Assembly: GCF_003334765.1 (NCBI RefSeq)
Contig: NZ_QOWT01000042.1
Length of the DNA: 30,886 nt
From: Escherichia coli
GTDB lineage: Bacteria; Pseudomonadota; Gammaproteobacteria; Enterobacterales; Enterobacteriaceae
Direction: 5' to 3' (one strand)
The notes under the pieces were generated by a model. That model was given only the letters and a program-made list of their open reading frames with translations, did no database searches and was not told where the DNA came from. The translations under genes were made by a program, and so were the position numbers. This document shows, piece after piece, positions 9,620-9,778 of the stretch. The stretch's first letter is position 1. Each line of letters opens with the position of its first letter.

Positions 9620-9778
9620 TTAATCGCGGGTTTGCACCCAGAACGCGTGAATCAAACCGGGGATATACCCAAGCAGTGTCAACAGAATATTAATAATGAA
9701 CGCCCAACCGAACCCTTTACCGAGCAGCACGCCGAGCGGCGGCAGAATGATGGTGATGACGATTCTCCAGAAACCCAT
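9620..9778 (-). CDS. yqaE: Small UPF0057/Pmp3-family membrane protein, 52 aa
   Basis: Not on the ORF track (<60 aa). Reverse complement of 9761-9778 reads ATG GGT TTC TGG AGA ATC = MGFWRI; reverse complement of 9620-9640 reads WVQTRD-stop. Confidence 0.8.
   Translation of the reverse strand: MGFWRIVITIILPPLGVLLGKGFGWAFIINILLTLLGYIPGLIHAFWVQTRD

Follow-up and report, generated by a model that had tools for sequence, protein, structure and literature searches.

The Pmp3-family membrane protein gene yqaE of Escherichia coli and the antisense reading frame that shadows it

Small membrane proteins of the Pmp3/RCI2/UPF0057 family occur in bacteria, in fungi (yeast) and in plants. Yeast cells lacking pmp3 are hyperpolarised and salt-sensitive (Navarre & Goffeau 2000, as related in PMC7835403), and the same account describes delta-yqaE E. 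coli as sensitive to low and to high NaCl and as complemented by a eukaryotic (dinoflagellate) Pmp3 homologue (Kwok et al. 2020, via PMC7835403). Yeast Pmp3p and plant RCI2 (Lti6) resemble E. coli YqaE in carrying PF01679, in size and in their predicted two-helix hairpin, and salt-related phenotypes and the reported cross-kingdom complementation extend the likeness to function. The systems differ as well: it is the E. coli mutant that suffers at both ends of the NaCl range, and its gene and the yeast gene react to KCl in opposite directions, again on the account in PMC7835403. Regulation by CpxR and by the small RNA CyaR is specific to enterobacteria.

Another relative is PscF/Ric1. PMC9529944 describes it as an accessory subunit, embedded in the membrane, of the reaction centre of Chlorobaculum tepidum, where a lipid and a bacteriochlorophyll are held between it and PscA. 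It supplies the Pmp3 family with a solved structure, and yqaE itself is a poorly understood, stress-regulated member of this cross-kingdom family.

The locus considered here lies in a 30,886-nucleotide stretch of E. coli DNA, hereafter the window, which from position 75 onward matches E. coli K-12 MG1655 (NC_000913.3) at 99.96% identity (30.8 kb). The minus-strand frame at 9620..9778, which begins ATG GGT TTC TGG, ends CGC GAT TAA and encodes the 52 residues MGFWRIVITIILPPLGVLLGKGFGWAFIINILLTLLGYIPGLIHAFWVQTRD, is the real and long-annotated gene yqaE. Its CDS is identical to b2666 (NP_417152.1, WP_000508177.1) in RefSeq, and the feature annotated in NC_000913.3 as "Pmp3 family protein YqaE" (2796870..2797028, minus strand) maps exactly onto it; between the K-12 protein and this one there is no difference in sequence, strand, coordinates or place between kbp and ygaV. 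An 801-bp region around yqaE was found in 5418 of 5426 complete E. coli genomes, and all 15 of the records listed label it "kbp | yqaE: YqaE/Pmp3 family membrane protein | ygaV". There is no evidence against this identity. Databases and literature already cover the gene as well as its family and regulators, and nothing here is new. The sequence-only reading had quoted a translation running from MGFWRIVITIILPPLG to WVQTRD, which matches this frame, and had attributed it to yqaE of the Pmp3/UPF0057 family, an assignment borne out by the identical RefSeq CDS and by the Pfam match below. It was also right that a 60-aa cutoff in the program-made ORF track had hidden the gene: the default minimum lists the overlapping plus-strand ORF only, and calling at a lower minimum recovers the 52-aa frame, with AGGGAG upstream. 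Because NC_000913.3 annotates the identical CDS, yqaE was missing from that track alone and not from public annotation. The features of the locus are collected in Table 1.

Table 1. Features at and around yqaE, in window coordinates.
Feature	Position	Strand	Description	Basis
yqaE CDS	9620..9778	-	52 codons + TAA; Pmp3-family membrane protein with two predicted helices	ORF, RefSeq identity, PF01679
Shadow ORF, not a gene	9608..9793	+	61 aa; antisense to yqaE	stops in relatives; no NCBIfam family
kbp (ygaU)	9087..9536	-	K+-binding protein gene; 83 nt downstream of yqaE	RefSeq
GC-rich hairpin	9585..9604	-	16 nt after yqaE stop; no U tract	
Shine-Dalgarno AGGGAG	9784..9789	-	5 nt upstream of ATG	read from sequence
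Predicted CyaR pairing site	9766..9791	-	CyaR nt 34-53 against yqaE -12 to +13; Shine-Dalgarno + codons 1-5	
CpxR box GTAAATGAGAGTAAA	9876..9890	-	GTAAA-N5-GTAAA; 98-112 nt upstream of ATG	exact consensus match
Candidate promoter	9830..9861	-	-35-like CTGGCA (9861..9856), 17-nt spacer, -10 TACGCT within CTACGCTTAA (9839..9830)	
Alternative sigma-70 promoter	9805..9833	-	TTAAGA-17-AACAAT	Shimada et al. 2014 prediction, located in sequence
Perfect 7-bp inverted repeat	9815..9831	-	AAGAGAT-AAA-ATCTCTT; 5' leader or promoter; unique in window	

What marks so short a frame as coding? Its length alone is little evidence, as the surrounding 2.5 kb are overlapped by 38 ORFs of 20 aa or more. The Pfam Pmp3 model (PF01679) matches the translation with E = 2.8e-19 and 69.3 bits, aligning residues 3-48 with model positions 2-47 of 49, and thereby spans 46 of the 52 residues. 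A homology search, the check that the sequence-only reading had proposed for the 52-aa product, returned 906 homologues among 5.8 billion proteins, and PF01679 was carried by all 120 of the matches listed. NCBIfam gave no family for YqaE, only a chance-level match to MscL (E = 0.12, well short of the cutoff). A scan of one genome per species confirmed 442 yqaE loci spread across bacterial phyla; 80 of these were retained, 46 of them from Enterobacterales. Within the Enterobacterales set the ATG start is present in 46 of 46 orthologues, and the ORF is 52 codons long at 44 of the 46 loci and at least one codon longer at the other two, both in Klebsiella. Across these orthologues the numbers of variable columns (of 52) at codon positions 1, 2 and 3 are 26, 6 and 49, and summed Nei-Gojobori comparisons with the window sequence give pS 0.72 and pN 0.073; the resulting pN/pS of 0.10 indicates strong purifying selection in the minus-strand frame. 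Many gene calls in Enterobacter (P0030-P0037 and others) run to 78-83 aa, typically about 79, as against 52. Those genomes keep both the Shine-Dalgarno motif and the ATG that belong to the 52-aa protein, and the longer calls are probably mis-assigned upstream starts.

The protein is predicted to be a 52-residue hydrophobic inner-membrane protein whose two helices are connected through a short Gly-Lys-Gly loop. An AlphaFold2 model built from a 32-sequence alignment places the helices at residues 3-21 and 25-50 with the G-K-G loop between them (mean pLDDT 87.3), and by prediction YqaE thus has the size (about 50-60 residues) and the two helices characteristic of Pmp3 proteins. The same alignment, which takes in Enterobacterales, Pseudomonas, Rhodobacteraceae (alphaproteobacteria), cyanobacteria, Nitrospirae, Rubrobacter and others, contains 18 invariant columns (R5, P13, P14, G16, V17, G22, F27, N30, I31, L33, T34, L36, G37, Y38, P40, G41, H44 and A45); the window YqaE has all 18, and with them the family motifs PPLGV, N-I-x-L-T-L-L-G-Y-x-P-G and H-A. 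A Foldseek comparison of the model with the PDB gave a best E of 5.8, an uninformative outcome of the kind expected for a helical hairpin of 52 residues. Sequence profiles did reach a structure: chain F of PDB 7UEB (also 8GWA), "PscF | Ric1 protein", matched with E = 4.1e-7, and Pfam places this chain, too, in Pmp3 (E = 4.7e-12), a relationship that finds no mention in the passages of PMC9529944 consulted. PscF/Ric1 has the PP, LTL and IPG motifs in common with YqaE and lacks several of the residues invariant in YqaE-type proteins, such as G16, N30, Y38 and H44; it is also bound within a photosynthetic reaction centre, whereas E. coli has no such complex.

Upstream, the gene carries the marks of envelope-stress control. 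The CpxR box is the only exact GTAAA-N5-GTAAA match in the window (9890..9876, GTAAATGAGAGTAAA). The box does not vary among the 16 species of an upstream alignment (A2), and in 31 of the 46 Enterobacterales orthologues an exact copy stands 90-118 nt ahead of the ATG; it is kept also at loci that have neither kbp nor ygaV as neighbours. An annotated CpxR site and a reporter footprint at yqaEp under gentamicin and copper have been described (bioRxiv 10.1101/2025.05.13.653802), yqaE has been treated as a CpxR-dependent gene (10.1101/2024.02.22.581605), and a LolCDE inhibitor induces it (PMC5105897). The conservation of the box agrees with this published Cpx regulation.

The start of transcription is less clear-cut, and two different promoter assignments are possible. 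In the 16-species alignment TGGC(A) and CTAnnCTT are invariant or nearly so, and CTACGCTTAA, which occurs once in the window, resembles a sigma-S extended -10 element; we infer from these elements a candidate sigma-S-like yqaE promoter, CTGGCA-17-TACGCT. Shimada et al. 2014 (PMC3946193) predicted TTAAGA-17-AACAAT instead. A scan for consensus sigma-70 promoters found no site around yqaE. The perfect inverted repeat in Table 1, which lies between the candidate -10 and the Shine-Dalgarno motif, is largely conserved in Escherichia, Citrobacter and Salmonella and shows no compensatory changes, for which reason we did not call it as an RNA structure; it may form a hairpin at the 5' end of the mRNA or serve as a binding site for a protein. 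An upstream ATG at 9806, opening a 29-aa ORF (9717..9806), was set aside: it has no Shine-Dalgarno motif and is kept only in E. coli and E. albertii among the aligned relatives.

Translation appears to be the second point of control. The GGAG of the Shine-Dalgarno motif is invariant in the 16-species alignment and present in 46 of 46 Enterobacterales orthologues, and the same letters fall within a predicted pairing site for CyaR, whose sequence we verified as b4438. In a seed-restricted RNAduplex calculation, the single-stranded nucleotides 34-53 of CyaR pair with yqaE at -21.1 kcal/mol, where shuffles average -9.9 and 1 of 1000 is as good; the duplex consists of two helices, one over the Shine-Dalgarno motif and one over codons 2-5. 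We infer the exact base pairs from this complementarity, which agrees with the published CyaR regulation of yqaE. Because the energy among relatives spans -12.5 to -25.4 kcal/mol, the predicted pairing is not uniformly conserved. An unrestricted RNAduplex run with full-length CyaR was rejected, having given an implausible pairing through the CyaR terminator hairpin that 35 of 500 shuffles equalled. Repression in vivo is published, with several lines of evidence for the interaction: yqaE mRNA co-purified with MS2-CyaR at a ratio of 70 (PMC5861431, Table 1), sponging of CyaR raises yqaE mRNA (PMC7213987), Hfq binds a "yqaE RBS" fragment that accumulates without PNPase (PMC7145675), and yqaE has been presented as an established CyaR target (10.64898/2025.12.22.696124). 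The window also contains an Rfam match to the small RNA MicA (27559-27630, plus strand) with luxS adjacent, just upstream, and luxS, like yqaE, is a published CyaR target (PMC5861431); no more than a handful of CyaR targets are published, and the presence of two of them some 17 kb from each other is probably coincidence.

Downstream, transcriptional read-through from yqaE into kbp is possible, because the GC-rich hairpin that follows the yqaE stop has no U tract and was not flagged by a terminator scan, whose sole terminator-like match nearby on the minus strand lies inside the yqaE CDS. When 9537..9625 is folded, the MFE and centroid structures both contain the 8-bp stem of this hairpin; the z-score for the whole region is only -1.6. 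The neighbourhood itself is young. Only E. coli, Citrobacter, Salmonella and, at a greater distance, Superficieibacter have kbp in the 1.5 kb that follow yqaE; it was not found by yqaE at the E. albertii locus (L002) or at most of the non-Escherichia loci (L004-L046). Because adjacency is confined to a few genera and is absent at the E. albertii locus, the comparison indicates that the yqaE-kbp pairing is recent and not a conserved operon.

Taken as a whole, the locus is very probably what its annotation and its regulators suggest: yqaE encodes a Pmp3-family membrane protein, regulated by CpxR and CyaR, that would adjust membrane potential or cation homeostasis. According to the literature Cpx activates yqaE and CyaR with Hfq represses it. 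Under this model CpxR would do so in envelope stress from the conserved upstream box, and CyaR, a small RNA dependent on cAMP-CRP, would pair with the ribosome-binding region and, with Hfq, block translation and promote decay of the mRNA. The protein would then adjust membrane potential, or cation leak and homeostasis, under envelope and ionic stress. Of these steps the last is proposed by analogy with yeast Pmp3 and from the reported deletion phenotypes, which make adjustment of membrane potential or cation homeostasis the most likely role. Deletion of yqaE made no significant difference to survival after expression of the membrane toxin TisB (10.1101/2024.02.22.581605).

Might YqaE act as a part of something larger? 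It could serve a larger membrane complex, or a lipid interface, as a docked accessory subunit, perhaps in K+ handling together with the neighbouring kbp; we consider this unlikely. The idea draws on PscF/Ric1, the sole Pmp3-family member with a solved structure, being a reaction-centre accessory subunit that sandwiches lipid and pigment (PMC9529944). It draws also on the closeness of kbp, with no canonical terminator between the two genes, although that adjacency is restricted to Escherichia, Citrobacter and Salmonella. We know of no YqaE partner in E. coli, which counts against docking. The complementation of delta-yqaE by a eukaryotic homologue, as reported in PMC7835403, likewise argues against a species-specific partner. 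The stricter form of the proposal, by which YqaE would serve as a docking or accessory subunit at the protein-lipid interface of an inner-membrane complex and not as a free-standing modulator of membrane potential, rests on the same analogy with PscF/Ric1 and seems to us a shade less probable again. If an accessory role were true, the Cpx and CyaR inputs would tune the abundance of one subunit of the partner complex.

Far less probable is a resemblance to type I toxins, by which YqaE would be a small hydrophobic peptide that depolarises the membrane and is restrained by a small RNA. YqaE is indeed a small, hydrophobic membrane peptide whose ribosome-binding site is occluded by an Hfq-dependent small RNA (PMC5861431), and yqaE is induced alongside responses to TisB (10.1101/2024.02.22.581605). 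However, CyaR is encoded in trans, far from yqaE, and acts on many targets (PMC5861431), so that it is no dedicated cis-antisense antitoxin. The Pmp3 family is moreover conserved across bacterial phyla, the signature of strong purifying selection on yqaE fits poorly with such a peptide, and the eukaryotic members are housekeeping or stress proteins according to the literature. The published phenotypes (PMC7835403) are sensitivities on loss of function, not toxicity on overexpression.

The overlapping plus-strand ORF is a shadow of yqaE. The two frames stand in exact antisense codon register (9776 - 9608 = 168), such that position 9776, for instance, is the third position of a sense codon and the first of an antisense codon. 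Stops in the plus frame are possible only opposite the sense codons TTA, CTA and TCA, and since E. coli yqaE uses none of these, the plus frame is open in E. coli. In relatives it fares otherwise: it is interrupted at 31 of the 46 orthologous loci, with 1-8 internal stops each, and open at the other 15. Its most variable codon position is the first, which coincides with the sense wobble position, and a search of NCBIfam with the plus-strand ORF found no family match. All of this upholds the statement of the sequence-only reading that this ORF is spurious. That the plus-strand ORF is the real gene and the minus-strand frame an accident is thus effectively refuted already: in its favour the ORF is longer than yqaE, passes the 60-aa cutoff and is uninterrupted in 15 of 46 relatives, but it is broken by stops in the other 31, lacks an NCBIfam family, varies most at its first codon position, is open in E. 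coli solely through the codons absent from yqaE, and lies where RefSeq annotates the minus strand only. That a 60-aa ORF cutoff conceals a genuine conserved gene and lists its antisense shadow instead is a methodological warning and no discovery.

Are other genes hidden in the same way? The suggestion that further genes of fewer than 60 aa lie in the intergenic regions of the window did not hold up. NC_000913.3 annotates no other CDS below 60 aa within it, and a survey of ORFs of 15-59 aa that were at least 80% intergenic and preceded by a Shine-Dalgarno-like motif 5-16 nt upstream gave eight weak candidates, mostly with TTG or GTG starts and weak motifs. None of the eight is convincing, the survey covering intergenic ORFs with a Shine-Dalgarno motif as distinct from leaderless or gene-nested ones. 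Two of them, the longest, sit in a REP/naRNA4 element and are probably repeat artefacts; the element is an Rfam match to naRNA4, a REP-derived nucleoid-associated RNA, at 20884-20961 (plus strand, 72 bits) in the proX-ygaY intergenic region.

The remainder of the window holds several differences from MG1655. There are four SNPs, and near 21321 a 7-nt duplication, GCGGCAT, by which ygaY (21066-22250) becomes an intact ORF of 394 aa; in MG1655 ygaY is annotated as a frameshifted pseudogene. Because of this intact ygaY, the source of the window is a close relative of K-12 and not MG1655 itself. Positions 1-74 do not align with MG1655 ygaQ and resemble an IS5 terminal repeat, and a query with positions 1-900 gave up to 42 matches per genome, on plasmids too; the window apparently starts within a mobile element, present in many copies, that has inserted into the ygaQ pseudogene. 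At the opposite end, tRNA matches to argQ and argZ (30544-30617 and 30819-30886, minus strand) belong to an arg tRNA repeat cluster, in which argZ is cut by the window end, and the terminal sequence matches the neighbouring arg tRNA repeats at 91-94% identity.
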